Translations under genes and position numbers: made by a program | NCBI GenBank assembly: GCA_032249135.1 | Contig: JAVVGL010000004.1 | Location: forward strand, 62,760-126,759 | Length of the DNA: 64,000 nucleotides | Direction: 5' to 3' | Source: Candidatus Calescibacterium sp. | Lineage (GTDB): Bacteria; Calescibacteriota; Calescibacteriia; Calescibacteriales; Calescibacteriaceae | The notes under the pieces: generated by a model | What the model was told of the DNA's origin: nothing | Database searches by the model: none | The model's input: only the letters and a program-made list of their open reading frames with translations | Shown here: in pieces, positions 16,644 through 63,501 of the stretch | How the letters are laid out: every line of letters starts with the position of its first letter | Position numbering within the stretch: the first letter of the stretch is position 1

Positions 16644-16837
16644 AATTTTTATAGTAAAAAATTGATTTTGATTTATCTTTTGCCTTCTTTTTGCTGGTAA
16701 ATTATCTTATGACAGATTGTCTTGTGGTAGATTTATCATTTGCAGAAAAAATTTTTGAATTTTTGTTCAAATTCAAGCGAAGATTAATCTTATACAATTT
16801 GTTATTTGATGAATTCTGAGATGGAGGTAGATAAAAA

Positions 16838-17056
16838 ATGAGCGACAAAATAATTCCTGCTCCGATAACAGCGAATGTATGGAAGGTACTTGTAAGCGAG
16901 GGGTCGGAAGTTTCAGAGGGTGATACTATTGTAATTCTTGAATCCATGAAGATGGAAATTCCAGTTGAATCTCCTTACTCTGGGCGAATAAAAAAGCTTT
17001 ATGTGCAAGAAGGGGGATCAGTTGTAGAGGGGGAACCAATAGCTGAATTAGAATGA
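16838..17056 (+). CDS. Stand-alone biotin/lipoyl carrier protein
   Basis: 72 aa, ILESMKMEIPV biotinylation motif, GGAGG RBS. Confidence 0.9.
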   Translation: MSDKIIPAPITANVWKVLVSEGSEVSEGDTIVILESMKMEIPVESPYSGRIKKLYVQEGGSVVEGEPIAELE

Positions 17057-32932: not shown

Positions 32933-33072
32933 AATAATAGTAATATTTTTTCAAAATACTTAAAATTTATATAAGGGTGTTTCTAGACAGAAGAAAAACA
33001 GAAATAATAGTAATATTTTTTCAAAATACTTAAAATTTATATAAGGGTGTTTCTAGACAGAAGAAAAACAGA
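32933..33072. repeat. Perfect 70-bp tandem duplication
   Basis: 32933-33002 is identical to 33003-33072 (AATAATAGTAAT...GAAGAAAAACAGA). Confidence 0.95.
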
Positions 33073-33448
33073 GAAAGGGAAAGAAAAAGAAAAAGAGAAA
33101 GTAAGAAATTTATTTCGTAGGAAACTAATAAAATTGGGCGTATTTCTTCTACCATCAGCATATATTATTTTTGATGGAACAAAAAATAGGATTCAGGCAC
33201 AAACATTAGTTGAGCCTCCTACACCTGCTCCAAAGATCAGGATTACTGATATGAAAGGAAAGAAAAAAAGAGAGAAAGGAAAGAAAAAAAGAGAGGAGGA
33301 AGATAATAAAATAATCAAAAGAATTTCTCCAAAATCTTTTGATTCGGATAGACAATATGAAAAAGATAAAAGGATTTTGAATAAAAAAACAGAAAAAGGA
33401 TATAGGTCTGTTTTTGAAAAGTATGGTTCAGTCGGTGAGGATGAGTGA
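33047..33448 (+). CDS. Small protein with a twin-arginine-like leader, paralog of 50355..50681
   Basis: RRKLIKLGVFLLP...IQAQTLVEPP, followed by a highly charged tail. Confidence 0.6.
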   Translation: MFLDRRKTEKGKEKEKEKVRNLFRRKLIKLGVFLLPSAYIIFDGTKNRIQAQTLVEPPTPAPKIRITDMKGKKKREKGKKKREEEDNKIIKRISPKSFDSDRQYEKDKRILNKKTEKGYRSVFEKYGSVGEDE

Positions 33449-49010: not shown

Positions 49011-49388
49011 TCATTCTTTTTTCTGTTGTAGGTTTTGGGAAATATCAATAATTTTGTAAAGTAAGTTTTTAATATTTCTGGTGTCGTTTTCAATTCTTTC
49101 TACTCGTTCTACTATTTGTTTCATATCAACTTTCATTTCCGAAAGTTCCTTTCTTATTTCTTTGTTATCTTCTTCTATTTTTTCTATTCTTCTTACTAAT
49201 GAATTTTCAAGGGAATCTATGCGTTTGTTAGTGTCATCAATTCTTCTGTTCAGGTCATTATTTATTTCGCTGATTCTTTTGTTCATGTCATCAATTCTTC
49301 TGTTTATGATGTGAGTAGCAAGCACAATAAAGCTCCCGATTACTCCTGCTGTTCCTATTATTATGCTAAAAATTTGTAATCCATCCAT
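49011..49388 (-). CDS. Membrane-anchored coiled-coil protein of a multicopy family
   Basis: N-terminal TM, then RIDD.NKRI repeats and heptads; paralog at 63789..64000. Confidence 0.7.
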   Translation of the reverse strand: MDGLQIFSIIIGTAGVIGSFIVLATHIINRRIDDMNKRISEINNDLNRRIDDTNKRIDSLENSLVRRIEKIEEDNKEIRKELSEMKVDMKQIVERVERIENDTRNIKNLLYKIIDISQNLQQKKE

Positions 49389-49487: not shown

Positions 49488-50315
49488 ATGTTTGCATGGA
49501 TAGAACTTACACCATCATGTAATTTGAGGTGCGTTCATTGTTATGTGAATTATGATTTTGAGGCTAATGATGGTAGAACTCAAATTCGCTTCAATCCGTT
49601 TGTCCCGGAACTTATAGATAATCTGGCAAAAGTAGGTTGCAAGATGGTTCAATTCATCGGTGGAGAACCATTACTTCTTAAAACGAAATTGGAAGAGTAT
49701 ATTAGGCTTGCAAAATCTAAAAACATGGGGGTAGAAGTCTATTCAAATCTCACGCTGCTTGACAAGAATGAAAACCTCGTAAATTTTTTCAAAGAGTATG
49801 GAGTGTATATTGCAACTTCATTTTATTCATATGATGAAAACACTCATGACAGAATAACTCAAAAGCCGGGGTCATTCAGAAAAACATTAGAAGCTATCAA
49901 GAAGGTTTTGAGCAAAGGAATAGATGTCAGGGTGGGAATAGTTATTATAAAAAACCTCAACGATCAACATATAAAAGATACGATAAGATTCTTGCAGAAA
50001 TTGGGAATTAAAAAAACAAGCATAAGAGTTGACAACATAAGAGAAGTCGGGACAGAAAAAACATGTGATGTTGAAAATTCATGTCTTCCAGGAAAGGCAT
50101 GCTTTTCATATAACGGATATGTTTTTCCTTGCATATTTTTTAGAAACATAATATTGGGGAAGTATCCGGAAGATAGCTTTGATAAAATAATGAGCAATCT
50201 CAAGAAATTCTGGTTGCAGAAGATGTTTTCTGACAAAAATATAAGAACAGCAGAAAAATTTATATCAAGATTAGGAATTCCACAGGATTTAGCTAAAATT
50301 GTGAGGATACAATGA
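49488..50315 (+). CDS. Radical SAM protein with a short SPASM/twitch-type C-terminal domain
   Basis: ELTPSCNLRCVHCY and GGEP motifs; C-terminal C...SC...GYVFPC...LG; TTGACA at 49447-49452 upstream. Confidence 0.9.
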   Translation: MFAWIELTPSCNLRCVHCYVNYDFEANDGRTQIRFNPFVPELIDNLAKVGCKMVQFIGGEPLLLKTKLEEYIRLAKSKNMGVEVYSNLTLLDKNENLVNFFKEYGVYIATSFYSYDENTHDRITQKPGSFRKTLEAIKKVLSKGIDVRVGIVIIKNLNDQHIKDTIRFLQKLGIKKTSIRVDNIREVGTEKTCDVENSCLPGKACFSYNGYVFPCIFFRNIILGKYPEDSFDKIMSNLKKFWLQKMFSDKNIRTAEKFISRLGIPQDLAKIVRIQ

Positions 50316-50354
50316 AAAGAAAAAAGGAAGGAAAGAAAATGAAGTGAATAAAAG

Positions 50355-50681
50355 ATGGAAAATGGGGATAAAAAGAGAAAAATTGATATTCTGAAAAGGA
50401 AGCTTTTGAAATTAGGGATATACTCAACTCCAATTATTTTGAGCATCTCAATACCTGATATAGAAATTCAAGCTCAAACTCCTGTTGAAGAACCTTGTGC
50501 CCCCTTTCTTGCTCCACCAATCAGAAAGAAAGGCATTATAGAACAGGAGGAAGACAAGAATGAGAAAAATCGTAACAAAAAGAAAATAAGGATAAAGTCA
50601 ATTTACGAGCTCTATAAAGATCCATTCAAATCACCTTTCAAAAAATCCCCTTTTGGGAAGAAAAAAGAGGAAGAAAAGTAG
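50355..50681 (+). CDS. Small protein with a Tat-like leader; candidate substrate of the adjacent radical SAM enzyme
   Basis: KRKLLKLGIYSTP...IQAQTPVEEPCAPF; 39 nt downstream of the radical SAM gene on the same strand. Confidence 0.6.
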   Translation: MENGDKKRKIDILKRKLLKLGIYSTPIILSISIPDIEIQAQTPVEEPCAPFLAPPIRKKGIIEQEEDKNEKNRNKKKIRIKSIYELYKDPFKSPFKKSPFGKKKEEEK

Positions 50682-50703: not shown

Positions 50704-53700
50704 TTAATCGTTTTCATCATAATTTGCGTTATTCTTCAAATTCTTCTTGAAATACCACTCCTTTTTACCATTGTTCGTCTGTTTTCCGAACTCAAATGCC
50801 CTCACATACCCGGCTTTATCACCGAATACCAATTCTAATCTACTATCTCCATCTATATCTCCGAAAACTGGAGAAGTGAAACCTCCCAAATTATTCCCCA
50901 AGAAGTATGGGCTACCTTGTGCTTGGATTCCGTCTGATTCAAAAATGTAAAGCCATCCATTATCTGTTAGAACAGCTATCTCTTGAGAACCATCATAATC
51001 AAAGTCTCCTACCGCGGGAGCAAGGCTCGGCGAACTTGAAAACTTCTTGAACCACATCCTAACTCCATTATTATCTATAACATATATATAACCGGGATTG
51101 CCAGAACTATATGGCAAAACCGTAACTATTACCTCAAGGTTTGAATCACCATCAATATCTGCCAAAACTATGTGTCTTGGATAATATCCGATTAAATTAT
51201 TTCCGTTTTCATCTTGAAGCACTAATGACCACTTTGAATTCCCATCCAAATCGTAAGCATAAATTGTAACAGGATTTGTTGTTCCAACAACAAAATCTCG
51301 TGTGCCATCTTTATCTATATCTCCTACCGATGGTGATGACAACCACTGCGATAGCCCTAAATTTATCGGCCAACCTGAAATAAGATTCCCCGATGAATTG
51401 AACTTATAAACATTACCATTTGTATCTGTTATCAAAATCTCCGCTGATGTTCCGGAACCATTCACAACAGGATACGATGCCATCAATTGCCCAGGTTCAT
51501 AATACCATTTGAGCGTCCCATTACCATCGTATGCGTAAAGCCTGTTGCATGGATTAAGTGCTGTAAAGAGTATTTCGTTTTCAGGATCAGAATCTATATT
51601 TGCAAGTGTTATAAATCTTACTTTGCAAGTCACAGAAATCGGAAATCCTGACTTTACATTACCAGCTGAATCAAATGCATAAACCAGACCTCCATCGTTT
51701 CCAACAACTATTTCAACTGAACCATCTCCATCTATATCACCTATTGCTGAGGTGCCGAAGATTGCATTTCCTGTACTTTTTGGCCAACCTGTCTTTACTG
51801 TGCCATCTGAGTTCAGAACATAAACTTGTCCGCCTCTTGTTAATATAACTATCTCTAATTTTTCGTCTCCATCAAAATCATATAGCTTTGGAGATGCCCA
51901 TATTTCTGCTCCTACTCCTGTTCCTAAACTTACTGGCCATGGTCTATCCTCTACCGCAAATCCCCTATATGGATGGATATCTAACACCCTACCATTACCG
52001 TTTCCGAAATCAACCCATGAGTATGATGCCTGTGGCTCTCCAAACGATATCGCATATAACCTCCCCCCTTCTGTCCCAACATATACAATTTGTCCTTTCA
52101 TCTTCACAGGCGCAGTTATAGAACCTAAAACCCCAACTGAACAACTTGAACTACCTCCTCCTATGCTTATTGAGTATAAAGTTAAACCTGAACCTATAAA
52201 TACTGACTTTTGTGATAGTGCAGCTGTTGACTTCACTGCACTACCTGTTGAATATGACCATAGTAAAGATGGAGTTGTACCCGTAATGTCTTCTTTTATC
52301 GCATAAACACTCCCGTTCTCCGCTCCCACAAACACCGTCACCTGCGAACCATAAACATAAACAACCGGCGATGACCTTATCGCTGAACTTATTGTCGTCC
52401 CTGTGTCATATACAACTGAACCTGATGGCGATACCTTGTACAATTTCCCATCATCCGCCCCAAAGTATATGTCTCCCTTCGGTCCCAATCCCGGCGAACT
52501 CTTTATCACAGGAGTACCCGTAACAGTGATGCTCCACTTATCAGTAAGGTCAAGTGAAAATGCATAAACTTTCCCTGCCTCTGTCACAAAATATACTGAC
52601 CCCCTTATTGCGTCTATTGCAGGTGCTGTACTTATTGCTCCCAAAACCTGCTTTGAGTTCAATATGCTCAAAGTCTTGCTCATCACAAATACCCAGCCCG
52701 TCGTCGTCCCCAAGTATACTTTACCATCTTTTACTGCACACCCTCCTACTACACCCCCTAAATCTCGTGTCCCTATCAGGTTTCCATCACTATCCACAGA
52801 GTGGAATTTACCATCTAATGTCCCTACAAATATAGTTGTCCTCTGACCCTCATGAGATGCACACAAATGCGATGAAACCGCTGAACCTAAATTCTTCAAC
52901 CACCTTATATTCCCATTCATAACATCCACAGCAATGAGATAACCAGTTGATGTCCCTACATAAACACTACTATCGTCTATCACTGCTGATGTTGTTATAC
53001 CACCTCCTATCCCTCCGCTCAAATCCACATTCCAAATTGTACCACTACAACCAGAAATAATACTTGCGCACGCTACATTTGACCACGATGAAACCCCCCC
53101 GCCTGCCTCCGTTCTCACACGATAACAGTATGTTCCTGCTGCCAAGCCTGAATGCACATGCGTCGTTGAGTTCGGAGATTTTGTCGTAAGCAATACCCAA
53201 TCCGTATCAGTACCCAATTTCATCTTCTCTATCCTGAATCCTGTCTCTTGCGTTGATGAGTCTTGCCAGGTGAGTTTTATTGCAGCTGAACTTATCACCT
53301 CTGCAACAAGTGGAGATGGAGAACCCAACGCCATCCAACATACCTCTCCTGCATACGATGAGTATTTGCTCACACCTTTCTTTGCCCTAACCTTAATACA
53401 ATATGTCGCCTCCTCCGAAAACTCCTTTGAATAATACTCCGTGTTCGCATCGGTCAAATCTGTTGCCCAGATTGCACTCCCTTCCTTCCTCATCCACACC
53501 TCATATCCCGTCTCTATCGTACTCCTATCTTGCCAATGTATCTCCAATGTCCTCAAAAATGCACCTGATACCACCGTCAGACCTGATGGCGCATACGGAA
53601 CTGCCTCAGTGCTTATTGTATTTGAATATCCTGATTCCCCTCCGCTATTGAACGCTGAAACCTTGAACCAGTAATACTTACCCTCTACAAGACCCCAAAT

Positions 53701-56700
53701 CGTTGCATTCGTCACATTCGCCCCCATCGTCGCTACTTTCGTAAATGTTGAACCATCATCTGACCTCCAAATCCAAAATCCTTCCTCTCCTGATGAGTTA
53801 TCTACCCATGTCAGAACAACAGCTGATGACACTGATGATGACATCTCATCATATACACTCAATCCGCTTGGCGCTTTCAATCCAGGCGTTGGGCATGAAA
53901 CATTTGAATAACTTGAATAAACTGAACCTTTCTTCGCTCTCACCCTGTAGCAGTTTGACACACCATCAACATATGCTGTGTCTTGGTAATTTGTAGTATT
54001 CGGACCCAAAGTCGCTATCTGAATCCATCCTCCGTTGTTTACATTCCTCTCTACAAGATAGTTCTCTTCAGCAGATGAGTTGTCATTCCAGAACACTCCT
54101 ATTGCCGTCCCTGAAAATCCTGTTGTCAATCCATCGGGTGCTACGAGCTGGGTCGTCTCGCACGCTGTATTTGAATACCCTGAACTCCCGTATGAGTTGT
54201 ATGCCGTCACACGATAGCAATATGTCGTAGCCTCTATCAACCCGCTATCTTGATAGTCTGTATCGTTGGCGGGTTGTGTCGCAATAAATGCAAAGTTTGT
54301 ACATCCTGCCCCCTGACACCTCTCTATCCCGAAACCTTCTTCGTTATTTGAATTATCAGTCCAACTTATCACCATCGTCGCCGTTCCTTGATAAATTATT
54401 TGCAGTCCAGAAGGTGTGTTAGGTATGGGGACATCGGGCGTCGTCGCCGTCGCCTCATTTGAATACTCTGAATACACCGTCTCTGAACCCACGGTTTTAT
54501 ATGCCCTCACCCTGTAGCAGTATGTTGTTGTCTTCACAACAGTTGTATCTTGATATGTCATAGTTCCTGTCCCGGGATTTGCTCCCAAAGATGCAATCTG
54601 TGTCCATCCACTCGCATCGCAGCTCCCACTTACATACCCCGTCCTCTCTATCAAATACCCACTCTCACCTGCTGAGTTATCTTGCCATGTGAGGTCTATT
54701 CTGTTATATGTGACTGCATTAGCTTGCAAAGAAGTTGGTGTTGCAGGCTTTGTCGTCTTGCAATATGAATCAGAATAAGATGAATATCTGGTTATTGAAT
54801 TGAAAGTTCTTTTGTTCCTTACCTTGTAGCAGTAAGTCTGCGCCTCTGAAAGCCCTGTATCCTGATAACCTGTCACATTCGCAGGTAGTGCAGCAATCAC
54901 AGCAAAGCTCGTGCATCCTGAACCTTGACATCTTTCAACATAGTAAGTATCCTCCTTTGATGAGTTGTCATACCATGTCGCTGTCAGCGATGAGCTTGAA
55001 ATTGTTTCAACTTTGAGTCCTGTCGGTGCCGCTGGATACACAAGATCACACGCCTCATTTGAATAAGGTGAAACAGAATTTGATGTGTATGCAGTAACTC
55101 GGTAGCAGTAATATGTCCCCTCTGATGCCGTCGTATCTGAGTATGTCGTCGCATTCGCAGGCGCTGTTGCCAAGAACGAGTATGATGCAGCTCCCTCATC
55201 CTTCCTCTCCACACCAAATCCTTGCTCGTTCTCTGAATTGTCTTTCCATGTGAGATCCACCTGCGATGTTGATGCAGCTTGTGCTTGGAGATTTGATGGC
55301 GCACACAACCTCGCTCCCCCTGTGTTAAACCTATCTAATCTGAACTTCGGATACTCTGCTGATGATGAAAGTGGTGATGTCCCTGAAACCGCATATAAAC
55401 CTTTCGTTGAACCTATATAAATATTCCCGCTCGGAGCTATCGCTGGTGATGCTTCATTCGCTTGCCCTGTAAGTTCAAACTGCCATGAAACCAAAAATGA
55501 GCTCCCAGACCTCGTCAGTGCCCACAAATATCCACCCGCCGGCGTATTTGACGCTACATAAACCACTCCGGAATCCGCTATCGCTGGCGATGATGTTGAT
55601 GCTCCTCCAAACTCCATCCTTGATACAACCTGCAAGGTTCCTTTATCCAGAGCAACTATCGCACCTGCTGATGATATTACGCTAACATATACATAATCTG
55701 AAACCGCTGGCGATGACCTTACCTGCGTCCCTGCTCCAAAACTCACACTCGCCGAAACCGCACAACTTGACTTATTTATCTTCGCAACTTGACCATTATC
55801 TAACCCTACATAAATCCCTGTTGAATCAACAGCAGGAGATGACCTTATGATAGCACCAAGTGCAGCAGTTGAACAAACTAATGTAAATGTGCTCCGTGAG
55901 AGAACATAAACCTTCTGGTCATCAGCCGCAAATACCACATTGGCACCATCAATAGTTGCTGATGTGTATATCGCCCCTATATTCCCAGTAGATGGATATC
56001 TTCTCAAAATTGTTCCATCTGTTGCTCTCACAGCATAGAACACCCCTCCCGTTGTCCCAACATAAACCTCTCCATCGTTTGATATAGCTGGCGATGCCCT
56101 GATCTGACCTCCCAAAAGCACATTCCAGTTTATATTACCATCGGTTGCCCTCACAGAATAAAGCCTCCCATTACCAGCCCCGAAAAATACATCTCGTTCG
56201 CATGTTATCGCTGGGGATGACAATATCGGAGAACCTATATTTACCACCCACTTTTGGCTCCCATCAGGTTTTATCGCATAAAGTTTCCCATCTGCTCCTC
56301 CAAATATTATAGTCCCATCCACATCTATCGCTGGTGTCCCCGTCACACCTCCCGAAACAAAAATCTTGAAAACTTCTGAACCCGACCCATAAGTTGTTGC
56401 CTCTGCCACATTTGAATATCCTGAATAAACTACTCCGACATCTGAACCGGTTTTATATGCCCTCACCCTGTATCGGTAAGTTGTGCTCGGGCTCAAACCT
56501 GTGTCAGTAAATTCTATTGTATTCGGGGGTAAATCTGCAATCTTGACAAAGCTTGTGCATCCTGAACCCTGACACCTCTCTACCTCATATCCGCTCTCAC
56601 CAGATGAGTTATCTTGCCAGCTCAGCTTTATTGATGATGCTGATTGTGGCTGTGCTGTCAAGCTTGATGGGTCATTTGGTTTTGTTGACGCTGAAACAAC

Positions 56701-59700
56701 ATTTGAGAACGACGAAACTCCTGTATCATTCGTCACCCTTACCTTATACCAGTATATCGTCGCCTCCGCCAAACCCGTATCAGAATATGATGTTGAGTTC
56801 GCTGACAAAATTGCAACTCGTGAATAACTCGCTCCATCTGATGACCTCCATACTTCAACCTTGCTCTCCCGTGTTGAGTTATCTTGCCATGTGAGGTCTA
56901 TTTGTGAATTTGAAATTACAGTCGCACCGAGTGATGATGGAGCGCACATAGGAACAGCAGTTGATGTGTTTGAGTAATTTGAAAACCCATACTCGTTGTA
57001 TGCCCTTACCCTGTATGTGTAATAAACATCACAAGTTGCAGTTGTGTCCTCATAATATGTCACATCAGCTCCGACTGAGGCTATCTCGTAAAATGTTGCT
57101 CCCTCTGGCATCCTCTCTATCTTGAACCCTTGCTCTATTGCTGAGTTGTCTTGCCACCAAAGATTTACCTGTGTTGATGCAACTGCTTGTGATGTGAGAT
57201 TTGATGGTGCGTCCGGTGGTGAAGGAGGTGGAGCTGGTGTTGTCGCCTCCACTATCCCTGAATACAAAGAGTATATCCCTGCATCTGAAAATGCCCTTAT
57301 CCTATACCTATATGTCGTTGAAGGTGAAACCGGCTCATCTATATAAGAAGTTGAATTCGCTGGCATAGTCGCTATCACAGAAAAAGAAGTGCAACCTGCA
57401 CCCTGACATCTTTCAACATAATAACCTGATTCCTTTGATGAGTTGTCATTCCAGTAAACTTCTATCCTCTGGTAGTTCACAGCTACCGCGTTCTCCCCCG
57501 TTGGCTTATGTAAATATGTCGTAGCAACAGAAGTGTTTGAATACGCTGACTCATTATCAGATGAAAATGCTTTGACCCTATATGTCCATGTCGTCGCCTC
57601 TGGCAACCCTTCATCTAAATAAGAACCTGAGTTCTCTCCCAAAGTTGCAACAACAGAAAAAGATGTGCATCCTGAACCCTCACATCTTTCAACATAGTAT
57701 CCTGTCTCCTTTGTTGAATTATCTGTCCATGTCAGTAAAACCTGTGTTGATGACTGTGGCGATGCGTTCAGACTTGTTGGCGTTCCTAATTTTGTCGTAC
57801 CACATATAGTCAAGGAGTAGTTTGATGTTATTGTGCCTCTATAAGACCTCACTCGCCAGCAATAATTTGTTCCCTCCGAAAGACCTGTATCTGTGTATTG
57901 AGTTGTTCCAGCTGGGAGGTCTGCAATTTGTGTGAAAGGTCCTATGGGACTCGGTGCTCTCTCAACATAAAATCCCTGCTCAAATATTGTGTGGCGAGTC
58001 CAAGAAAGAATTGCAGTTGAGTGCGACTGAATATTAACAGAAAGGTTTATAGGTCTGCAAAGCCCTTTTACCCTACCATCTCTTTGAGTATTCCCCTTGA
58101 ACTGATACCACACTGGTTCTTGTGGTGGATATGCATCTGTGTCAAAAGCATATAAAAGCCCATCTCCTCCGATTATATAAACCCTACCAGCATCACCAGA
58201 AATTAGGGGAGAAGACCTTACAGTCTGGGTACCCATACTGTAAAACCATACTATGGTTCCTCCTACAACTTTGTGTAATCTTGTATTTGCTGCAAACCAT
58301 ACATTTCCGTTCCTATCTACCGCAGGAGTTGAGATTGCAGGTCCTGTTGTTTGCAGTACCCAATCAACTTGCGAGTTATTACCTAAATCTCGTATCTTAT
58401 AAAGTAAAGCGTTTGAGCCAGATGTTGCAGAAACATAAATAGCATCGTCTTGCCCTATCACAGGTGATGGGATAATGTCAGTCAGTGAAAGAGCTGGCGG
58501 AGCGGTGCTCAAAGTTCTGGACCATTTCAAGTTGCCAGAGTAATCAAGGGCAAATAGCCTTATTTCTGATGTGCCACTTTGAGCTGTAAAGTAAATATCT
58601 CCTGTGCAAGATATAGCAGGAGAACTCCTCACTACCCATCCACTCCCCACAGTGTACGACCAAATCGGATTTGCAACATCATTCAGGGCATAAAGTTTTC
58701 CATCATCTGAACCAACATAAGCCCTGTCTTGAATATCTATTGCAGGAGATGATATAACAGGTCCTCCTGTGAGATATTGTCCGACCAAAGTGCAAGCTCC
58801 ACCAGAGGAGATGACAGTTATGTAATTATTATTTGAGCCAAAAATAACTCTGTAAGATGAGAACAAAGACGGCGATGACCTGATAACTCCTCCACTGTTA
58901 TAACTACAAACAGCATTACCATTTGAACTTAATCTTTTGTAGAGGTTATTATCCTCTGCACCAGCTATAACATAACCTTCTGGACTTGATGCAGGAGATG
59001 AGAAGATGTTCACATTTAAAGTCGGTCCCCAGATTGATGTCCCAGCTCTTGATATTGCCCTGAATCCTCGTGTAGCGGCTCCCCCTCCCCACGCCGTTGT
59101 AAATATTCTCCCATCCTGCCCAGTAGAAGGGGATGAGTAAGCTGTTCCAGCTCCTGCAACCGCAAATGTCCATGCTACCCCCGCATTCGGAGTTGTACCG
59201 CAACTTACTTCTGACCAATCTGATACTGCATCTGATTTTTCTGCCCTCACACGATAGCAATATGTCGTGTTCGCTTGCAATCCCGTATCCTGATAACTTG
59301 TCGTATTCGCAGCTAAATTAGCTATCCCGGAAAATCCTGAGCACCCTGCTCCCTGACATCTTTCAACTTTGTAACTCCCCTCATAACTTGAACCATCATT
59401 CCATGAGAGGTTTATCTGAGATGGTAAAACTGGGTTTGCAAAAAGATTTGTCGGCGGTGAAAGAAGTGTCACATAAACTACATTTGAATATTGTGATTGC
59501 TGACCACTTGCCCATGCATATACCCTGAACCCATAAGTTGTTTCTGATGTAAGACCTGGCCAGGTGTAATCTGTCGCATTCTGAGGTAGAACCTGAGTGA
59601 CTTTTGTTGAAAAATCGCAACCTGCTCCTTCACATCTTTCCACAACTATATTCTGCTCAACAGATGAATTCTCTTTCCACCAAAGGTAAACTTTCGTTGA

Positions 59701-62700
59701 ACCTACACCGAAAACCTGCAAATTCGTAGGCTCCGCAATCTGAGTCGTTGTCTCCACCACATTTGATGGTGATGAATTACCTTGATTGTTATACGCATAA
59801 ACCCTGTACCGGTAAGTTGTGAGCTCAGATATAGTTGTGTCTGTGTATTGCGTGACATTTGACTGTGCAATAACAAATGTGACTTTACTTGAAAAATCAC
59901 ACCCTGCTCCCTGACATCTCTCAACAACAAATCCTTCTTCATCTGTTGAGTTATCTTGCCAACTGAGTTTTACATATGTCCCAGTTGTTTCAATAACTTC
60001 AAGTGAAGATGGTGCTGCGGGAGGAGTTGCTGGTGGGTCAAGAGTTGTCGCTGACACTTCTTCTGTGTAAAATGAAAAAACTGTTCCTTTGTATGCCCTC
60101 GCCCTATACCAGTATGATGTTGAAGGGGAAAGCCCTGTATCAACATACACTACTTTTGACCCTGAACCAGAACTCGGACCCAAAGTCGCTATAACAGTCC
60201 AAGTACCAGCCTGAGTCCTCCTTTCTATCTTAAATCCTTCCTCTGTTTCCGAGTTGTCCCAAAATTCAAAAGTAATTTGTGTGTGTGAGTTAGCAGTTGC
60301 ACTGGGTCCTGTCGGAGCTTTCGGGAAAGTTATGGCACAACTTTCATTTGAGTAATCTGAACAATCAGTCCCAACACATGCTCTCACCCTGTAACAGTAA
60401 TTTGTCCCCTCCAAAAGCCATGTATCTGAGTAGCTTGATACATCTCCCAGGACTGCTATTTCAGAATAAGCTCCACCTGAAATTGCTCTTTCTACTCTAT
60501 AAGAATCATTTGCTGCTGAATTATCTGACCAGGAGAGGTTGATTTGGGAGTCAGAGGAAGCAGTTGCATTCAGACCAGAAGGAGCTTTCGGTTTTGTTCT
60601 TATACAAACAGTATCAGAGTATTTGGAATAGATAGTTGTTGCTCCGATAGTTCTGAAAGCGCGGACGCGATAGCAATAGACAGTGTATTCGCTCAAAAGA
60701 GTATCAACAAAAGTCACTGTTGAGCCGTATCCTGATGCTGCGCCGGTTGAGCCGATTTCAGAAAAAGAGGTGCAACCTGCACCCTGACATCTTTCAACTT
60801 TGTATCCCGTCTCATAAGCTGTTTTGTCAGTCCACTGAATTTTGATTTGGGAATCAGAAATTGCAGAACCTGTGATTGATTGAGGAGTGCAGAGATGAAG
60901 TCTTCCTGTGTTTGAGTTATCGTGTTTGAACTTTGGCCACGCAGCGTCAGCCAAACCAGATGAGTCACTACTTGATGAAAAAGCCACCAGCCTACCACTT
61001 TCTCTGGATACATATAATCTCCCATCAGGTCTCAAAGCAGCTGATGACCAAACTGCAACATTTTGTCCCAAATTAGAACTTTCCGCAGTTCTTGATGGAT
61101 CATAAACAACATACATATTGTTGTCCAAGTTTCCAGCCCATACTGAAAGATTTGCTGAAACAGCTGGTGAAGCCTGAAAATCGTTTCCTGCGGCAAGATA
61201 CCATCTTCTTGTACCATTTGTAAAATATGAATGGAGACGATTATTTAGTACAGCTCCAAAAAACAGTTTGTCATCAACGATTGCACAAGATGAAAGCTCA
61301 ACTGTGTCAGCATCTATTATCTGGAAAGAGGTCAGAACAGCTCCTGTTTGTGGGTTAAATTTCCTACAATATGTATCCAAAGAACATATCCATATTGTTC
61401 CATCGCAGTCAATTGATGGTGTCGCCTGCAACCTCCCAACTTGTGTCCCCCACTTTATCGTTCCATCTGGATTCACGGCATATAACGCACCAGTTCCTGA
61501 TGTCGGATAATCAACTGCTACATATATCACACCATCTGGTGCCACTACCGCACTTCCCCATATATTGCCCTCTCCCCCTATCTTGAAACTTACTGGGAAA
61601 CCTCCTACCTGCGCCCCAGATGAACCTATAAATGCATAAAGCTTCGCTTGACCGTGCGATGTCACATATACCCTACCATCGTATGATATAGTCGGCGAAT
61701 TATAAAGTATCGTATCTCCGCTATCTAACGGAGACCACCATCTTGATGTCCCATTCGGATACACCGCAAATACCCCCGCATTTGATGCTACATAAACAGT
61801 GCCATCATCACCTATCGCCGGCGATGAATACGATGGATTACTCATTCCAGTACCTATTGAAAATGTCCAAAGCAGTGTCCCAGCGTTCCCATCATCTCTT
61901 ACCTTCCTCAAAACCGCTGAATATGGCGCAGCGTTATTTGATGTAACATAGTATATCACCCAGTTCGCTCCCTCCAAAGTTATCGCAGGCGATGACCTTG
62001 ATTGATTCCCACCACCAGGGTTATATGTCCAAGCTCTGTTTATAGCAAAAGGAACGAGTTCTCCTTGTGGTTCTTCCGAAATTTGAGGTTTTTCTTGTGT
62101 GCCAGTTATCTTTTCTGATGCTTTTTGTGTTTGCGCATATCTCAAAATCGCCTCCGCATCCAAAAACACATATCCCTCTTCTGTCTTCGGTCCAGATAAA
62201 ATCGCTTCCTTCACATCTTTTGCTGTCAAATCTTGTCTCATCCCCCTCACCAACGCCGCAACCCCTGAAACCAATCCCGCTGAAAGTGATGTCCCCGTTG
62301 CACTGCAATACAACTGAAATCCTCCACATGTCGTCAATATATCTTCTCCCGGAGCTATCACCTTCACTGCCGAACCCCTTGATGAAAAACTTGATAGCTT
62401 TTTGTTCTTATCTGATGATCCAACTATTATTATATTCGGAAATTCTTCTTCAAGTGGTGCTCCTACTCCTGACCATATCGCATCCCATCCTGAGTTCCCT
62501 GCTGCCTGCACAAAAACTACATCCGAAAATAGTAAATACCTGAAAACTGGCTCAAATATCCTTATCTGCTGTTCAAGTACATCCCAATCCTCTGGTATAT
62601 GCACTGATGGCTCCCTTGACCATCCTAATCCCCCTGAAAAGTTTATCACCCTTGCTCCTCTATCAGCAGCATCTAACATGTATCTTATCAAAGACATAAT

Positions 62701-63501
62701 TGAGCCATCTATCTTATAAACTAACAAAGATGTATCCCAACACACCCCTGCTATCCCCTTTTTGTTATTCCCTCTTGCTCCTATCACTCCCATCACCTGT
62801 GTCCCATGGTCCTGACTTATCTCACTTTGAGTTATCTCCTCATAATAAACTACATTTCCTTCAAAATCCTCATGATTTAGATTGAAACCAAAGTCAATAA
62901 CTGCAACTGTGACAGATTTTGAGCATGTTGCAATATCCCAAGCTTTGGGGAGGTTTATAAGTTCTGCCCAGTATTGCTCCTGAAATTTCGGATCATCTGG
63001 AATTGTTTGCATATTGAGAACAAAGTTCGGAGTTGCAACCACAACCTCATCATAAGATTGAGCAAGATTTATCTTTTCCCTTATCTCATCATCTGTTTGA
63101 GCTTGAACTTCAACTTGGACTATTCCCAAAATTGGCTCTCCACCTATAATCTTACCTCCAAGTTTAGAAATTATCTTTTTTACTTTCCTTTCTGATGTTT
63201 TAGGTGAGAAAGCAAGAAGGATTTGATTTTTTGCCAATTTCAGACCAGTTCTTTTATCTTGGATAATTTCTCTTGGGGGTTCAACTTTATCTGGGATAAT
63301 TTTTGCGTACTTTGGAGGTTCAATGGGAGGGTAATGACGAGGAATTTCGGAATCAACATGAAAAATTTGCCCTTTCACTACTTTCTTTTTACAAGATATG
63401 AAGAAGAAAGAGAAAGAGAAGGAAATTAAGAGAATAGTGATAAATAAAGAAAGAAAAGAAGGAGAAGAAAAATATTTTACACCCCCGTTTTTCATTTTCA
63501 C
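50704..63501 (-). CDS. Giant lipoprotein: S8 subtilase, four PQQ/BamB-like propellers, 20 FN3 domains and a C-terminal FG-GAP/VCBS region (start probably ATG 63495)
   Basis: Lipobox-like FFISC; triad VIDFG / HGTQV / GTSLS; SSPAI..DG.VYV repeats; P..L...W.DNS..E.G..VER...Y.YRVRA repeats; GDIDGDG..EIVV repeats. Confidence 0.88.
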   Translation of the reverse strand: MKMKNGGVKYFSSPSFLSLFITILLISFSFSFFFISCKKKVVKGQIFHVDSEIPRHYPPIEPPKYAKIIPDKVEPPREIIQDKRTGLKLAKNQILLAFSPKTSERKVKKIISKLGGKIIGGEPILGIVQVEVQAQTDDEIREKINLAQSYDEVVVATPNFVLNMQTIPDDPKFQEQYWAELINLPKAWDIATCSKSVTVAVIDFGFNLNHEDFEGNVVYYEEITQSEISQDHGTQVMGVIGARGNNKKGIAGVCWDTSLLVYKIDGSIMSLIRYMLDAADRGARVINFSGGLGWSREPSVHIPEDWDVLEQQIRIFEPVFRYLLFSDVVFVQAAGNSGWDAIWSGVGAPLEEEFPNIIIVGSSDKNKKLSSFSSRGSAVKVIAPGEDILTTCGGFQLYCSATGTSLSAGLVSGVAALVRGMRQDLTAKDVKEAILSGPKTEEGYVFLDAEAILRYAQTQKASEKITGTQEKPQISEEPQGELVPFAINRAWTYNPGGGNQSRSSPAITLEGANWVIYYVTSNNAAPYSAVLRKVRDDGNAGTLLWTFSIGTGMSNPSYSSPAIGDDGTVYVASNAGVFAVYPNGTSRWWSPLDSGDTILYNSPTISYDGRVYVTSHGQAKLYAFIGSSGAQVGGFPVSFKIGGEGNIWGSAVVAPDGVIYVAVDYPTSGTGALYAVNPDGTIKWGTQVGRLQATPSIDCDGTIWICSLDTYCRKFNPQTGAVLTSFQIIDADTVELSSCAIVDDKLFFGAVLNNRLHSYFTNGTRRWYLAAGNDFQASPAVSANLSVWAGNLDNNMYVVYDPSRTAESSNLGQNVAVWSSAALRPDGRLYVSRESGRLVAFSSSSDSSGLADAAWPKFKHDNSNTGRLHLCTPQSITGSAISDSQIKIQWTDKTAYETGYKVERCQGAGCTSFSEIGSTGAASGYGSTVTFVDTLLSEYTVYCYRVRAFRTIGATTIYSKYSDTVCIRTKPKAPSGLNATASSDSQINLSWSDNSAANDSYRVERAISGGAYSEIAVLGDVSSYSDTWLLEGTNYCYRVRACVGTDCSDYSNESCAITFPKAPTGPSATANSHTQITFEFWDNSETEEGFKIERRTQAGTWTVIATLGPSSGSGSKVVYVDTGLSPSTSYWYRARAYKGTVFSFYTEEVSATTLDPPATPPAAPSSLEVIETTGTYVKLSWQDNSTDEEGFVVERCQGAGCDFSSKVTFVIAQSNVTQYTDTTISELTTYRYRVYAYNNQGNSSPSNVVETTTQIAEPTNLQVFGVGSTKVYLWWKENSSVEQNIVVERCEGAGCDFSTKVTQVLPQNATDYTWPGLTSETTYGFRVYAWASGQQSQYSNVVYVTLLSPPTNLFANPVLPSQINLSWNDGSSYEGSYKVERCQGAGCSGFSGIANLAANTTSYQDTGLQANTTYCYRVRAEKSDAVSDWSEVSCGTTPNAGVAWTFAVAGAGTAYSSPSTGQDGRIFTTAWGGGAATRGFRAISRAGTSIWGPTLNVNIFSSPASSPEGYVIAGAEDNNLYKRLSSNGNAVCSYNSGGVIRSSPSLFSSYRVIFGSNNNYITVISSGGACTLVGQYLTGGPVISSPAIDIQDRAYVGSDDGKLYALNDVANPIWSYTVGSGWVVRSSPAISCTGDIYFTAQSGTSEIRLFALDYSGNLKWSRTLSTAPPALSLTDIIPSPVIGQDDAIYVSATSGSNALLYKIRDLGNNSQVDWVLQTTGPAISTPAVDRNGNVWFAANTRLHKVVGGTIVWFYSMGTQTVRSSPLISGDAGRVYIIGGDGLLYAFDTDAYPPQEPVWYQFKGNTQRDGRVKGLCRPINLSVNIQSHSTAILSWTRHTIFEQGFYVERAPSPIGPFTQIADLPAGTTQYTDTGLSEGTNYCWRVRSYRGTITSNYSLTICGTTKLGTPTSLNASPQSSTQVLLTWTDNSTKETGYYVERCEGSGCTSFSVVATLGENSGSYLDEGLPEATTWTYRVKAFSSDNESAYSNTSVATTYLHKPTGENAVAVNYQRIEVYWNDNSSKESGYYVERCQGAGCTSFSVIATMPANSTSYIDEPVSPSTTYRYRIRAFSDAGIYSLYSGIVEATTPAPPPSPPDAPSNLTSQAVASTQVNLWWQDNSAIEQGFKIERMPEGATFYEIASVGADVTYYEDTTATCDVYYTYRVRAYNEYGFSNYSNTSTAVPMCAPSSLGATVISNSQIDLTWQDNSTRESKVEVWRSSDGASYSRVAILSANSTSYSDTGLAEATIYWYKVRVTNDTGVSSFSNVVSASTKPNDPSSLTAQPQSASSIKLSWQDNSSGESGYEVERCQGSGCTSFVKIADLPPNTIEFTDTGLSPSTTYRYRVRAYKTGSDVGVVYSGYSNVAEATTYGSGSEVFKIFVSGGVTGTPAIDVDGTIIFGGADGKLYAIKPDGSQKWVVNIGSPILSSPAITCERDVFFGAGNGRLYSVRATDGNINWNVLLGGQIRASPAISNDGEVYVGTTGGVFYAVRATDGTILRRYPSTGNIGAIYTSATIDGANVVFAADDQKVYVLSRSTFTLVCSTAALGAIIRSSPAVDSTGIYVGLDNGQVAKINKSSCAVSASVSFGAGTQVRSSPAVSDYVYVSVISSAGAIVALDKGTLQVVSRMEFGGASTSSPAIADSGVVYVASNTPAGGYLWALTRSGSSFLVSWQFELTGQANEASPAIAPSGNIYIGSTKGLYAVSGTSPLSSSAEYPKFRLDRFNTGGARLCAPSNLQAQAASTSQVDLTWKDNSENEQGFGVERKDEGAASYSFLATAPANATTYSDTTASEGTYYCYRVTAYTSNSVSPYSNEACDLVYPAAPTGLKVETISSSSLTATWYDNSSKEDTYYVERCQGSGCTSFAVIAALPANVTGYQDTGLSEAQTYCYKVRNKRTFNSITRYSSYSDSYCKTTKPATPTSLQANAVTYNRIDLTWQDNSAGESGYLIERTGYVSGSCDASGWTQIASLGANPGTGTMTYQDTTVVKTTTYCYRVRAYKTVGSETVYSEYSNEATATTPDVPIPNTPSGLQIIYQGTATMVISWTDNSNNEEGFGIERCQGAGCTNFAFIATQPANDTDYQDSGLIEATTYCYRVTAYNSYGSSGYSNTACETTQLVAPDGLTTGFSGTAIGVFWNDNSSAEENYLVERNVNNGGWIQIATLGPNTTNYQDTAYVDGVSNCYRVRAKKGSVYSSYSNVSCPTPGLKAPSGLSVYDEMSSSVSSAVVLTWVDNSSGEEGFWIWRSDDGSTFTKVATMGANVTNATIWGLVEGKYYWFKVSAFNSGGESGYSNTISTEAVPYAPSGLTVVSGAFLRTLEIHWQDRSTIETGYEVWMRKEGSAIWATDLTDANTEYYSKEFSEEATYCIKVRAKKGVSKYSSYAGEVCWMALGSPSPLVAEVISSAAIKLTWQDSSTQETGFRIEKMKLGTDTDWVLLTTKSPNSTTHVHSGLAAGTYCYRVRTEAGGGVSSWSNVACASIISGCSGTIWNVDLSGGIGGGITTSAVIDDSSVYVGTSTGYLIAVDVMNGNIRWLKNLGSAVSSHLCASHEGQRTTIFVGTLDGKFHSVDSDGNLIGTRDLGGVVGGCAVKDGKVYLGTTTGWVFVMSKTLSILNSKQVLGAISTAPAIDAIRGSVYFVTEAGKVYAFSLDLTDKWSITVTGTPVIKSSPGLGPKGDIYFGADDGKLYKVSPSGSVVYDTGTTISSAIRSSPVVYVYGSQVTVFVGAENGSVYAIKEDITGTTPSLLWSYSTGSAVKSTAALSQKSVFIGSGLTLYSISIGGGSSSCSVGVLGSITAPVKMKGQIVYVGTEGGRLYAISFGEPQASYSWVDFGNGNGRVLDIHPYRGFAVEDRPWPVSLGTGVGAEIWASPKLYDFDGDEKLEIVILTRGGQVYVLNSDGTVKTGWPKSTGNAIFGTSAIGDIDGDGSVEIVVGNDGGLVYAFDSAGNVKSGFPISVTCKVRFITLANIDSDPENEILFTALNPCNRLYAYDGNGTLKWYYEPGQLMASYPVVNGSGTSAEILITDTNGNVYKFNSSGNLISGWPINLGLSQWLSSPSVGDIDKDGTRDFVVGTTNPVTIYAYDLDGNSKWSLVLQDENGNNLIGYYPRHIVLADIDGDSNLEVIVTVLPYSSGNPGYIYVIDNNGVRMWFKKFSSSPSLAPAVGDFDYDGSQEIAVLTDNGWLYIFESDGIQAQGSPYFLGNNLGGFTSPVFGDIDGDSRLELVFGDKAGYVRAFEFGKQTNNGKKEWYFKKNLKNNANYDEND

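Follow-up and report, generated by a model that had tools for sequence, protein, structure and literature searches.

Full SPASM domains consist of a C-terminal seven-Cys motif that binds two auxiliary clusters, and the twitch domain is a truncated SPASM, that is, a Cys-x9-15-Gly-x4-Cys hairpin with one auxiliary cluster. Cytoplasmic SPASM-type enzymes modify signal-bearing proteins prior to their export, as anSME does with sulfatases and QhpD with the QhpC subunit. The SynChlorMet and GeoRSP cassettes, for which no paper naming them was found in the literature searched, are contiguous. Tat signal peptides combine a twin-arginine motif, an h-region of moderate hydrophobicity and an Ala-x-Ala cleavage site.

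With regard to lasso peptides, their leaders contain YxxPxL at positions -17 to -12 and a Thr at position -2, and their cores an acidic residue at position 7-9, according to the available part of PMC10368454, and HPr-kinase homologues act jointly with B1 on linear lasso precursors (PMC8498205 and PMC10368454, available parts). Bufferin precursors have 80-120 aa and a leader that is a general export signal, with no dedicated exporter described in the available part of PMC11626156, a source that also gives a precedent for RiPP precursors with Sec signal peptides.

The locus presented here belongs to Candidatus Calescibacterium sp. and is located in a window of contig JAVVGL010000004.1 (the whole stretch of DNA analysed, 64,000 nucleotides), in which the gene of a radical SAM enzyme precedes that of a small protein (Table 1). 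It is proposed, with the chances for and against evenly balanced, that these two proteins are an enzyme-substrate pair in a dispersed, lineage-specific maturation system for exported small proteins. The ORF list bears out the arrangement given in a preliminary description made from the letters alone, namely a 275-aa radical SAM enzyme with the motif CNLRCVHC, a gap of 39 nt and a 108-aa ORF. That description saw no RRE/PqqD, dedicated peptidase or exporter gene alongside, and the ORF list and a domain scan agree that none adjoins the pair in the window. The sole peptidase domain nearby is the S8 subtilase domain within the convergent 4265-aa gene, in which the domain scan also detects fn3, beta-propellers and FG-GAP.

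Table 1. Features of the locus and related genes in the window.
Feature	Position	Strand	Remarks
Radical SAM enzyme gene	49488..50315	+	275 aa; ORF list
Intergenic spacer	50316..50354	+	39 nt; contains a three-codon ATG-AAG-TGA mini-frame
Small-protein ORF	50355..50681	+	108 aa; ORF list
Small protein, residues 1-40	50355..50474	+	basic n-region, twin-arginine-type motif, hydrophobic stretch, I38-Q39-A40 end
Small protein, residues 41-56	50475..50522	+	invariant Thr42, variable Pro/Gly/acidic segment, Ala/Ser-Pro-Pro end
Small protein, residues 57-108 and stop codon	50523..50681	+	Lys/Glu-rich tail, IKSIY, DPF/SPF/SPF
Third, more distant small-protein family member	33047..33448	+	133 aa, true RR; profile match E 1.2e-7
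Giant surface-type protein gene	50704..63501	-	4265 aa; convergent with the pair; context only

The radical SAM enzyme

In this enzyme CNLRCVHC constitutes a CX3CX2C motif at Cys11, Cys15 and Cys18, and the Pfam Radical_SAM domain (PF04055) is matched with an E value of 1.4e-28 (100.6 bits, cut-off 29.5), motif and domain together placing it in the superfamily. Further cysteines are found at positions 51, 193, 199, 205 and 215. The arrangement C199-x10-G210-x4-C215, with Cys193 and Cys205 close by, follows the SPASM/twitch pattern over its first half. The SPASM domain (PF13186) scores 17.7 bits over residues 205-238, under its cut-off of 21.5, and the Cys-rich second half, which the alignment finds kept in relatives of 32-38% identity, is missing in the window enzyme, whose C-terminal tail is helical at residues 231-274. 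Membership of the full SPASM subfamily is ruled out by this score and by the absent Cys-rich tail. Judging from its sequence, the tail would be a truncated, "twitch-like" SPASM, which is how the preliminary description had read this short Cys-containing end.

The AF2 model of the enzyme (pLDDT 83.7, with low confidence at residues 186-195) has SkfB as its best Foldseek match (E 3.5e-12, TMq 0.65), anSME being among the fold matches, and SkfB is also the best match in a PDB sequence search (E 1.3e-10). Sequence and modelled fold suggest that the enzyme groups with the peptide-modifying SPASM/twitch enzymes, SkfB being its nearest solved relative by both criteria. Like SkfB, CteB, SuiB, EpeE and anSME, it combines the CX3CX2C core with a Cys-x10-Gly-x4-Cys hairpin, although its identity to SkfB and other twitch/SPASM maturases is only about 22%. 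It differs from the SkfB-type maturases in lacking an RRE domain at the N-terminus, where only ten residues precede CX3CX2C, in the missing Cys-rich second half of SPASM, and in a partner without conserved Cys.

None of the curated families searched reaches its cut-off with the enzyme, the best ones being AhbC, MoaA, AhbD and NirJ, all of them core-only matches. An identity as a prokaryotic viperin (pVip) was discarded, since the PADLOC match (1.3e-18) spans core residues 6-171 only, corresponding to profile positions 5-163 of 257; the NCBIfam viperin model gives 58.7 bits vs a cut-off of 180.

The small protein and its family

That the small ORF is a genuine gene rather than a fortuitous reading frame is borne out by its 32 homologues of 59-99% identity and by its pN/pS. 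In comparisons with five related loci that have diverged by more than 20% (L032, L033, L036, L037 and L043), this ratio is 0.14-0.24 in the tail and 0.27-0.66 towards the N-terminus; when the near-identical L030 is used instead, the tail gives 0.50, with changes too few to use. Its family is tiny (21 representatives among 1.84 billion) and confined to one phylum. It corresponds to no family in Pfam, NCBIfam or PADLOC, and the preliminary description did not recognise a named RiPP class in the pair. Members share a layout that begins with a twin-arginine-type motif and a hydrophobic stretch; an Ala-x-Thr site, invariant in the family, then leads to a variable segment of Pro, Gly and acidic residues and to a tail rich in Lys and Glu. 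In the window copy, the N-terminus carries KRKLLK and GIYSTP, the former being the twin-arginine-type motif (K14 R15 K16 L17 L18 K19, i.e., a KR pair), and the hydrophobic stretch contains the invariant Y23-x-x-P26-x-I28. There follow IQA-QT, with the invariant Ala40 and Thr42, the single Cys (Cys48) and the DPF/SPF/SPF motifs, and the preliminary description had listed leader, IQA-QT, lone Cys and (D/S)PF motifs correctly. For a RiPP core, such a long tail rich in Lys and Glu is unusual. In other strains, the start codon of the small protein is located farther upstream than in the window copy. The family tree gives no resolution at its deep nodes, and the two PqqD-linked groups may or may not be orthologous.

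Family-wide, the most conserved element is [KR]-R-x-[LI]-x-K, after which come a stretch without charges and sites resembling Ala-x-Ala. Of 20 remote representatives, 12 have a true RR pair and five have KR, in agreement with the Tat-like N-terminus that had been pointed out for this protein. The genome encodes TatC and two TatA genes, and a permissive Tat-like pattern, which is not a validated predictor, is found in 17 of 5195 six-frame ORFs, both window copies among them. Residues 1-40 may be read as an export signal, as an RRE-bound leader or as both, the N-terminus being Tat-like and a putative export signal.

It is quite improbable that this region is exclusively an RRE-bound leader, with the product remaining in the cytoplasm or leaving by another route, as in classical RiPPs. 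Such a role would agree with the invariant Tyr-x-x-Pro-x-Ile and the Thr followed by a variable residue, which recall the lasso YxxPxL and Thr(-2) (PMC10368454, available part), and with the RRE fold of the PqqD protein discussed below, which is nearest to lasso B1. However, the best-conserved part of the whole family is the twin-arginine-type element with its uncharged stretch and Ala-x-Ala-like sites, the distance from Tyr to Thr exceeds that of lasso leaders by four residues, and no transporter or protease gene lies nearby. The nearest named clusters in the Atlas are Tat-signal small subunits (scores 0.83-0.84), to be taken as leads only.

If residues 1-40 do serve in export, the small protein would resemble the bufferins in its precursor length, in its export-signal-type leader and in having no dedicated exporter. 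It would differ from them in having a radical SAM enzyme instead of an MNIO/DUF2063 pair, in its twin-arginine-like signal and in its non-conserved Cys. In contrast to anSME and QhpD, neither a sulfatase nor a dehydrogenase forms part of the context here, and the Cys/Ser-x-Pro-x-Arg motif is absent, the window copy having Cys-Ala-Pro-Phe-Leu.

A short core carrying a sactipeptide- or ranthipeptide-like thioether, or some other Cys-based cross-link, at its Cys48 (CAPF) would be suggested by the fact that the nearest solved relative of the enzyme is the thioether-forming SkfB, and by a Cys-x-Pro element located after the leader, which the window copy shares with several family members, remote ones included. 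Nevertheless, this chemistry is highly improbable. Cys is present in six of the 12 radical-SAM-linked copies and missing in the rest (L032-L035 and L043/L045), despite the 94-97% identity of the enzymes at these Cys-free loci; Cys-x-Pro also appears in copies unlinked to the enzyme, and the pN/pS of the core is 0.17-0.92. A sactipeptide/ranthipeptide system was rejected on account of the lack of conserved Cys donors in the core and of an N-terminal RRE domain on the maturase. The Cys-centred chemistry initially put forward (a thioether, with a shift of -2 Da at CAPF) has consequently been abandoned, and the modification proposed here is not a conserved Cys cross-link. When the copies were compared, no residue specific to those linked to the radical SAM gene, and usable as a target, was identified.

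Genes adjacent to the family members

In each of the 11 related metagenome loci with upstream sequence, the radical SAM gene directly precedes the small gene. In the radical-SAM-linked loci the enzyme is 94-97% identical (pS about 0.10) and the neighbouring housekeeping genes 96-100%. Since all these loci belong to one species-level lineage, the adjacency counts as one evolutionary event. Metatranscriptomic contigs from four runs lie on the pair, and those of three runs include one that bridges the spacer, whereas one run has no contig over 50010-50675, an absence to which no meaning is attached, it being understood that contigs from RNA libraries, in which DNA is possibly present, show neither transcript, strand nor level, and that bridging is no proof of a single transcript.

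Two other types of gene accompany the family. In a sister species, the orthologue of the small protein adjoins an HPr-kinase-like gene, convergent downstream of the small gene, which is intact in seven loci and a pseudogene in three. A paralogue of the small protein, present in this genome too, adjoins a free-standing PqqD gene, and a PqqD gene is adjacent to family members in 12 loci with two different gene orders. Both the kinase and the PqqD modules are flanked by housekeeping genes, so these two-gene modules stand alone. In the hybrid loci L043 and L045 a radical SAM gene, a small gene and a decayed kinase gene are found together, thus linking both enzyme types to one substrate gene. An intact kinase gene and the radical SAM gene never occur together. 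Taking into account that this genome (about 2.1 Mb) contains 14 radical SAM genes, two PqqD-domain genes and one distant HPr-kinase-like gene, chance is an unlikely reason for three types of peptide-maturation gene to adjoin a single small-protein family.

The main alternative, somewhat unlikely in our judgement, is that the adjacency is incidental. In this case, the small protein would be an ordinary lineage-specific exported or membrane-anchored protein, and the radical SAM gene, horizontally acquired at a recombination hot spot, would encode an enzyme acting on another substrate, e.g., a cofactor, a lipid or another protein. This would be consistent with the restriction of the enzyme to one species-level lineage, outside which its next relatives are 38% identical. 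The phylum's six other genomes (82-86% complete) yielded no orthologue, their best matches having 28-34% identity. A lack of co-occurrence between radical SAM homologues and the small ORF, which had been named as evidence against a maturase-substrate pair, is thus partly seen outside this lineage. Around the more distant radical SAM relatives, the neighbourhoods are heterogeneous, with no recurrent partner among the ORFs clustered for 53 of 80 loci (L080-L132). Moreover, no maturation-type gene lies beside the third window copy or beside the family members of G002, G003, G005 and G006, four of the six other genomes. The third copy is convergent with a thiolase-like/OB-fold gene, a pairing repeated in G002, G003 and G004, the G004 family member likewise adjoining the thiolase-like gene, and the PqqD-like and kinase-like genes of G002-G006 are located elsewhere, not beside family members.

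The divergence pattern would also fit an incidental adjacency. No positive selection on the core (residues 41-56) was detected, pN/pS being below 1 throughout, and core divergence is largely synonymous too, which points to recombination. Synonymous divergence jumps within the small ORF, with pS of 0.08-0.30 in the leader and of 0.4-0.97 in the core, vs 0.10 in the radical SAM gene. This places the small gene on a recombination boundary beside the hypervariable giant gene, whose product is 37-92% identical between strains, against 96-100% for its housekeeping neighbours. A recombination boundary is a place where unrelated genes can become neighbours.

Against a merely incidental adjacency, the kinase-like and PqqD neighbours would have to be due to chance as well, each having a base rate of about one or two genes per genome. 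In addition, the PqqD neighbour is kept in two different gene orders, a single small gene of the hybrid loci is accompanied both by the radical SAM gene and by what is left of a kinase gene, and the pair shares a strand with a short spacer bridged by RNA-library contigs.

The PqqD-type and HPr-kinase-like proteins

The PqqD protein encoded beside the paralogue on contig C12 is a free-standing protein of about 85 aa that scores 31.3 bits with PF05402 (Pfam cut-off 23.4), and hence the RRE missed in the first reading lies in the same genome, on another contig. Its model (pLDDT 93.0) comprises three strands and three helices, as does the winged helix-turn-helix of RREs, and has as best fold match TbiB1 in complex with its leader (TM 0.86, E 2.5e-4), followed by PqqD and another lasso B1; the modelled protein thus has the RRE (PqqD) fold. 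Co-folding of the PqqD protein with residues 1-62 of the small protein gave weak support, with a score of 0.35 vs 0.01 for the best of three controls. Of 80 solved complexes, 58 attain the mark, as do 2 of 110 mismatched pairs, and scores of 0.60 or less come from only seven of the 80 solved complexes and from both passing mismatches. Contact agreement between runs was at least 84% and the partner pLDDT at least 57. Since solved RRE-leader complexes exist, this pass may reflect likeness only.

The HPr-kinase-like protein scores 22.6 bits with PF07475, below the cut-off of 33.3, and 33.8 bits with HprK_rel_A (cut-off 200), and a P-loop is visible in its sequence.

These proteins recall the lasso systems that include B1 proteins and HPr-kinase-like kinases (paeninodin; BsfB1/BsfK). 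The same free-standing PqqD fold is found, with TbiB1 as the closest, an HPr-kinase-like P-loop protein is encoded beside the substrate gene, and the substrate shares the Tyr-x-x-Pro-x-Ile and the invariant Thr (PMC10368454 and PMC8498205, available parts). In contrast to those systems, there is here no cyclase/B2 protease cluster, the spacing is different, the product is much longer, and the two-gene modules are scattered, NCBIfam scores being far under the cut-offs (22.9 vs 80; 33.8 vs 200). The trio of radical SAM/SPASM, PqqD-like and HPr-kinase-like parts is that of the SynChlorMet and GeoRSP cassettes, whereas the parts are dispersed here, and the weak NCBIfam matches (ScmF, 8.9e-18; GeoRSP rSAM, 4.2e-15; ScmC, 0.0041) all remain far below cut-offs.

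A genuine lasso peptide system with a phosphorylated precursor would account for the B1-like RRE, the HPr-kinase-like gene and the YxxPxI and Thr signature, but it is scarcely credible. A search for cyclase and protease found no lasso cluster in the genome (87% complete): its sole Asn-synthase gene is a 638-aa frame (Asn_synthase, 1.7e-80) 25 kb away, and the sole B2-like match, a 502-aa protein with a transglutaminase domain, is encoded on another contig and stays under the NCBIfam cut-off, both genes being generic and unlinked. The invariant Thr is followed by no fixed Gly/Ala start, and about 60 further residues come after the post-Thr region. As a lasso leader/core, the small protein was rejected: YxxPxI and Thr are present, but the spacing is longer by four residues and no acidic position is fixed at 7-9.

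Proposed maturation system

Of the maturase-substrate pair of the preliminary description, the conserved two-gene unit and the SkfB-like enzyme stand, while its restriction to a single lineage and the failure of the Cys chemistry count against it. In the dispersed system proposed here, the N-terminal region of the small protein would combine a twin-arginine-type export motif with a Tyr-x-x-Pro-x-Ile like the leader motif bound by lasso B1. The free-standing PqqD-type protein, encoded on another contig beside the paralogue, would probably hold this region in the cytoplasm, where tailoring enzymes would act on the small protein beyond the invariant Ala40/Thr42. In this lineage the tailoring enzyme would be the twitch-like radical SAM protein, and in the sister species the HPr-kinase-like kinase. 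Later, the modified product would be exported by Tat or Sec and cleaved near IQA/QT, a general route that would account for the absence of a dedicated protease or exporter gene. Further points against this system are the enzyme's want of an RRE domain, the weakness of the co-folding support, the lack of a target residue specific to the radical-SAM-linked copies, the separate occurrence of intact kinase and radical SAM genes, and the long Lys/Glu-rich tail.

A more far-reaching version, which we regard as unlikely, is that these elements represent a new maturation class. In it, the Tat signal would double as leader, and the B1-like PqqD would act as a proofreading chaperone that retains this signal in the cytoplasm until the mature part has been modified. 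The modifying enzymes would be interchangeable, Tat and signal peptidase would replace the dedicated exporter and protease, and scattered two-gene modules would work in trans.

Significance

If the proposed system is true, it would be the first case found of a radical-SAM-tailored precursor with a twin-arginine-type export signal as leader, no radical-SAM-tailored RiPP precursor with a Tat-type leader having been found in the literature searched. It would extend the finding, made with the bufferins, that RiPP precursors can make use of general export signals (PMC11626156, available part), and lasso-type recognition proteins and kinases would be used outside lasso pathways. It would also serve as a warning that genome mining based on gene clusters overlooks dispersed systems. 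Taking into account that the lineage belongs to a deep-branching, uncultured hot-spring phylum represented by seven genomes, this one included, the chemistry involved is likely to be thermostable and unexplored.

The enzyme and the small protein

Both ORFs were placed accurately in the preliminary description, whose positions, 39-nt gap and radical SAM motif are confirmed (see the table of features). The enzyme scores 100.6 bits against PF04055 and carries its CX3CX2C motif at Cys11/15/18. None of the curated NCBIfam families comes near its cut-off, the best (AhbC, MoaA, AhbD, NirJ and ScmF) matching the core only; a PADLOC viperin match is also confined to the core, and this identity was rejected. 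Downstream of the core lies C199-x10-G210-x4-C215, with Cys193 and Cys205 close by. The nearest relatives (32-38% identity) extend into a long Cys/Pro-rich SPASM tail, where the alignment and the predicted model of the enzyme have three short helices. Among solved structures the peptide maturase SkfB, which has a twitch domain, ranks first in sequence (1.3e-10) and in fold (E 3.5e-12, TMq 0.65), followed by BlsE, MoaA, the peptide epimerase EpeE and anSME. Close relatives form just two 90%-identity clusters, the next match being 38% identical, and a search of the phylum's other six genomes (82-86% complete) yielded no orthologue, their best matches being 28-34% identical.

The small-protein gene is real, fast-changing and narrowly distributed. 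Pfam, NCBIfam and PADLOC hold no family for the 108-aa protein; its homologues (n=32) show 59-99% identity, and, in a set of 1.84 billion proteins, a profile built from 22 family members picks up just 21 representatives (E up to 0.001). In the genome collection the family is found in seven of the seven genomes of its phylum, and in none of 34 genomes sampled outside the window genome's family. Its members begin with a basic stretch containing [KR]-R-x-[LI]-x-K, continue through an uncharged stretch with Tyr/Trp-x-x-Pro and Ala-x-Ala-like sites up to Ala40, followed by Thr42, and then through a variable Pro/Gly/acidic segment ending in [DE]-[LI]-Pro-[AS]-Pro, to finish in a Lys/Glu-rich tail. 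Leu13, Arg15, Pro26, Ala40, Thr42 and Pro54 are invariant family-wide.

A true RR is present in 12 of 20 inspected representatives and KR, as in the window copy, in five, the other three being unlike or out of frame. The genome has tatC and two tatA genes, and in a protein atlas the named clusters nearest to the small protein are three small subunits with Tat signals (scores 0.83-0.84, leads only). On inspection of the sequence the N-terminus appears Tat-like; that it is a leader with no export-signal role, as the lasso-like motif described below could suggest, is unlikely.

The window also contains a third, distant family copy, convergent with a thiolase-like/OB-fold gene. This pairing recurs in three other genomes of the phylum (G002, G003 and G004), and the copy therefore looks like the family's ancestral one.

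Coordinates of the features discussed (positions within the window unless a contig of its genome or a fetched locus is named)
Feature	Location	Position	Strand	Description
Radical SAM gene	window	49488-50315	+	ORF, 275 aa
Small-protein gene	window	50355-50681	+	ORF, 108 aa, 39 nt past radical SAM gene
Third, distant family copy	window	33047-33448	+	133 aa, true RR motif; radical SAM, kinase or PqqD neighbour absent
Thiolase-like/OB-fold gene	window	33456-34835	-	459 aa
Coiled-coil protein gene	window	49011-49388	-	125 aa, membrane-anchored, NRRIDD-type repeats; divergent from radical SAM gene
Giant surface-protein gene	window	50704-63501	-	4265 aa; S8 subtilase, at least 9 fn3, PQQ-type beta-propellers, FG-GAP repeats
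PqqD-linked paralogue	contig C12 (region L021)	~16465-16840 (7963-8330)	-	ATG one base out of frame, A run right after start
PqqD-Memo fusion gene	contig C2 (region L059)	8610-9812 (1393-2595)	+	400 aa; N-terminal PqqD domain and Memo-like (AmmeMemoRadiSam system protein B) domain
HPr-kinase-like P-loop gene beside Methyltransf_28 gene	contig C5 (region L061)	66147-66950 and 67017-68087	+	distant kinase-like protein (HprK_rel_A 1.5e-6)
Decayed kinase gene	locus L043	8363-8931
Decayed kinase gene	locus L045	2233-2810
Decayed kinase gene	locus L046	564-1132

Gene neighbourhoods

All ORFs of 36 loci (29 metagenome loci and seven wider genome regions) were searched with four queries. The radical SAM gene lies directly upstream of the small gene, on the same strand, in 11 loci, that is, in 11 of the 11 of that type with DNA reaching upstream. 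Seven other loci have an intact HPr-kinase-like gene (260-280 aa) convergent downstream of the small gene, and 12 an adjoining free-standing PqqD gene (83-93 aa), in the order AspRS/small/PqqD/PyrG or AroC/small/PqqD/AspRS. Four distant homologues (L024-L027) have none of these partners, L037 could not be assigned on account of its short upstream contig, and L046 has a decayed kinase gene, its upstream DNA missing. Housekeeping genes flank both the kinase and the PqqD modules, and neither a protease nor a transporter gene is among them.

An intact kinase and the radical SAM enzyme never occur together in the 36 loci. Two of the 11 radical SAM loci, L043 and L045, are hybrids, since the radical SAM gene, the small gene and a decayed kinase gene are all present, and they show the kinase decaying. 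In L043, L045 and L046 the kinase pseudogene lies in three frames and lacks residues ~113-201, P-loop region included; decay of the kinase gene is found precisely in strains that have the radical SAM gene as well.

The frame offset of the PqqD-linked paralogue on C12 may stem from misassembly, from phase variation or from decay of the gene. A shortened 97-aa ORF like that of L021 is found in L052 and L053, and a full-length 118-aa ORF in L051.

Metatranscriptomic contigs on the pair come from four libraries of four studies. Three of the libraries each have one contig that spans the spacer and extends 31 nt or more beyond it on either side (X15, 49950-50390; X16 and X19, 50230-50404), which is compatible with co-expression, short of proving a single transcript, and the libraries may contain DNA.

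Weight of the co-occurrence

The 11 adjacencies are not 11 independent observations, because these loci represent one species-level lineage: their neighbouring housekeeping genes are 96-100% and the enzyme 94-97% identical to those of the window (pS ~0.10 for the enzyme). In the same set the small protein shows only 69-92% identity. Its divergence is largely synonymous, with pS of 0.4-0.97 in the core against 0.08-0.30 in the leader, and this jump indicates a recombination boundary through the gene. Its pN/pS stays below 1 throughout (core, 0.17-0.92); in the tail it is 0.14-0.24 against five loci more than 20% diverged and 0.50 against L030, where changes are few. The giant surface protein beside the pair shows 37-92% identity between strains that share 96-100% identity in their housekeeping genes. 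One of the same kind adjoins the small-protein gene in genus g3 too (L026, L027). The coiled-coil protein shows 79-97% identity between strains, and RNA-library contigs break and rejoin at its repeat positions.

It might be argued from such a boundary and such variable neighbours that the adjacency is incidental to a recombination hot spot and that the enzyme acts elsewhere, a reading that we consider less likely. We count about three or four independent events: the small gene came to adjoin a radical SAM gene, a kinase gene and, in two gene orders, a PqqD gene. With 14 radical SAM genes in the genome, two genes with a PqqD domain and a single distant kinase-like gene, it is very unlikely, in a judgement made post hoc, that three such adjacencies arose by chance round one small family. 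We give an even chance to the two genes being an enzyme-substrate pair in a system, with its genes dispersed, that matures small exported proteins.

A modification centred on the single Cys (CAPF), as initially proposed, fares poorly. This residue is present in six of the 12 radical-SAM-linked copies (window, L028-L031 and L036) and absent from the other six (L032-L035, L043 and L045), and a Cys-x-Pro element is likewise seen in remote family members and in copies that lack a link to the enzyme. Thus, a conserved thioether is unlikely, and a Cys cross-link is improbable despite the Cys of the window copy. Comparison of the 12 linked copies identified no residue specific to them.

PqqD and kinase partners

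The PqqD protein scores above the Pfam cut-off, and its model (pLDDT 93.0) superposes best on TbiB1 (TM 0.86), then on PqqD itself and another lasso B1. TbiB1 is a lasso-peptide leader-binding protein whose structure was solved together with its leader. The kinase-like protein gives weak matches, below cut-offs, to the HPr-kinase C-terminal domain, HprK-related and ScmC models. HPr-kinase homologues are described in two reports as tailoring enzymes of linear lasso precursors assayed alongside B1 (PMC8498205; PMC10368454), and one of these reports places YxxPxL at -17 to -12 of lasso leaders, usually with Thr at -2 (PMC10368454). The small proteins resemble them in an invariant Tyr23-x-x-Pro26-x-Ile28 and in an invariant Thr42 with a variable residue after it, but the distance from motif to Thr exceeds that of lasso leaders by four residues. 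No lasso cyclase/protease cluster was found in the window's genome (87% complete), and a true lasso system is most improbable.

Co-folding of the PqqD protein with residues 1-62 of the window's small protein scored 0.35, the best of three controls reaching 0.01; the runs agreed in at least 84% of contacts and partner pLDDT was at least 57. Of 80 solved complexes 58 pass the mark, as do 2 of 110 mismatched pairs. Just seven of the 80 account for scores of 0.60 or less, together with both mismatches that pass. This predicted pairing of the PqqD protein with the small protein's N-terminus is weakly supported, and the pass may reflect likeness only, since solved RRE-leader complexes exist.

Elsewhere in the genome, the PqqD-Memo fusion suggests that the little-understood AmmeMemoRadiSam system also recognises a peptide. 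The kinase-like/Methyltransf_28 pair on C5 is a separate conserved module, as G002 and G003 keep the same pair.

Perspectives

Taken singly, every component is of a type already known. Alongside a twitch/SPASM maturase there are an RRE of the lasso-B1 type, a tailoring enzyme resembling HPr kinase, and a precursor that bears a signal, like those of the bufferins (PMC11626156). In the literature searched, which does not extend to ~1.7 million PubMed Central articles or to subscription journals, no paper names the HprK-related or SynChlorMet families, and no description was found of a twin-arginine-type leader combined with a dispersed arrangement in modules of two genes and an exchange of enzymes between sister species. 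It is this combination, still unproven, that would be new. In the proposed system, the PqqD protein would be a recognition chaperone acting in trans, and sister lineages would tailor the small protein either with the radical SAM enzyme or with the kinase.
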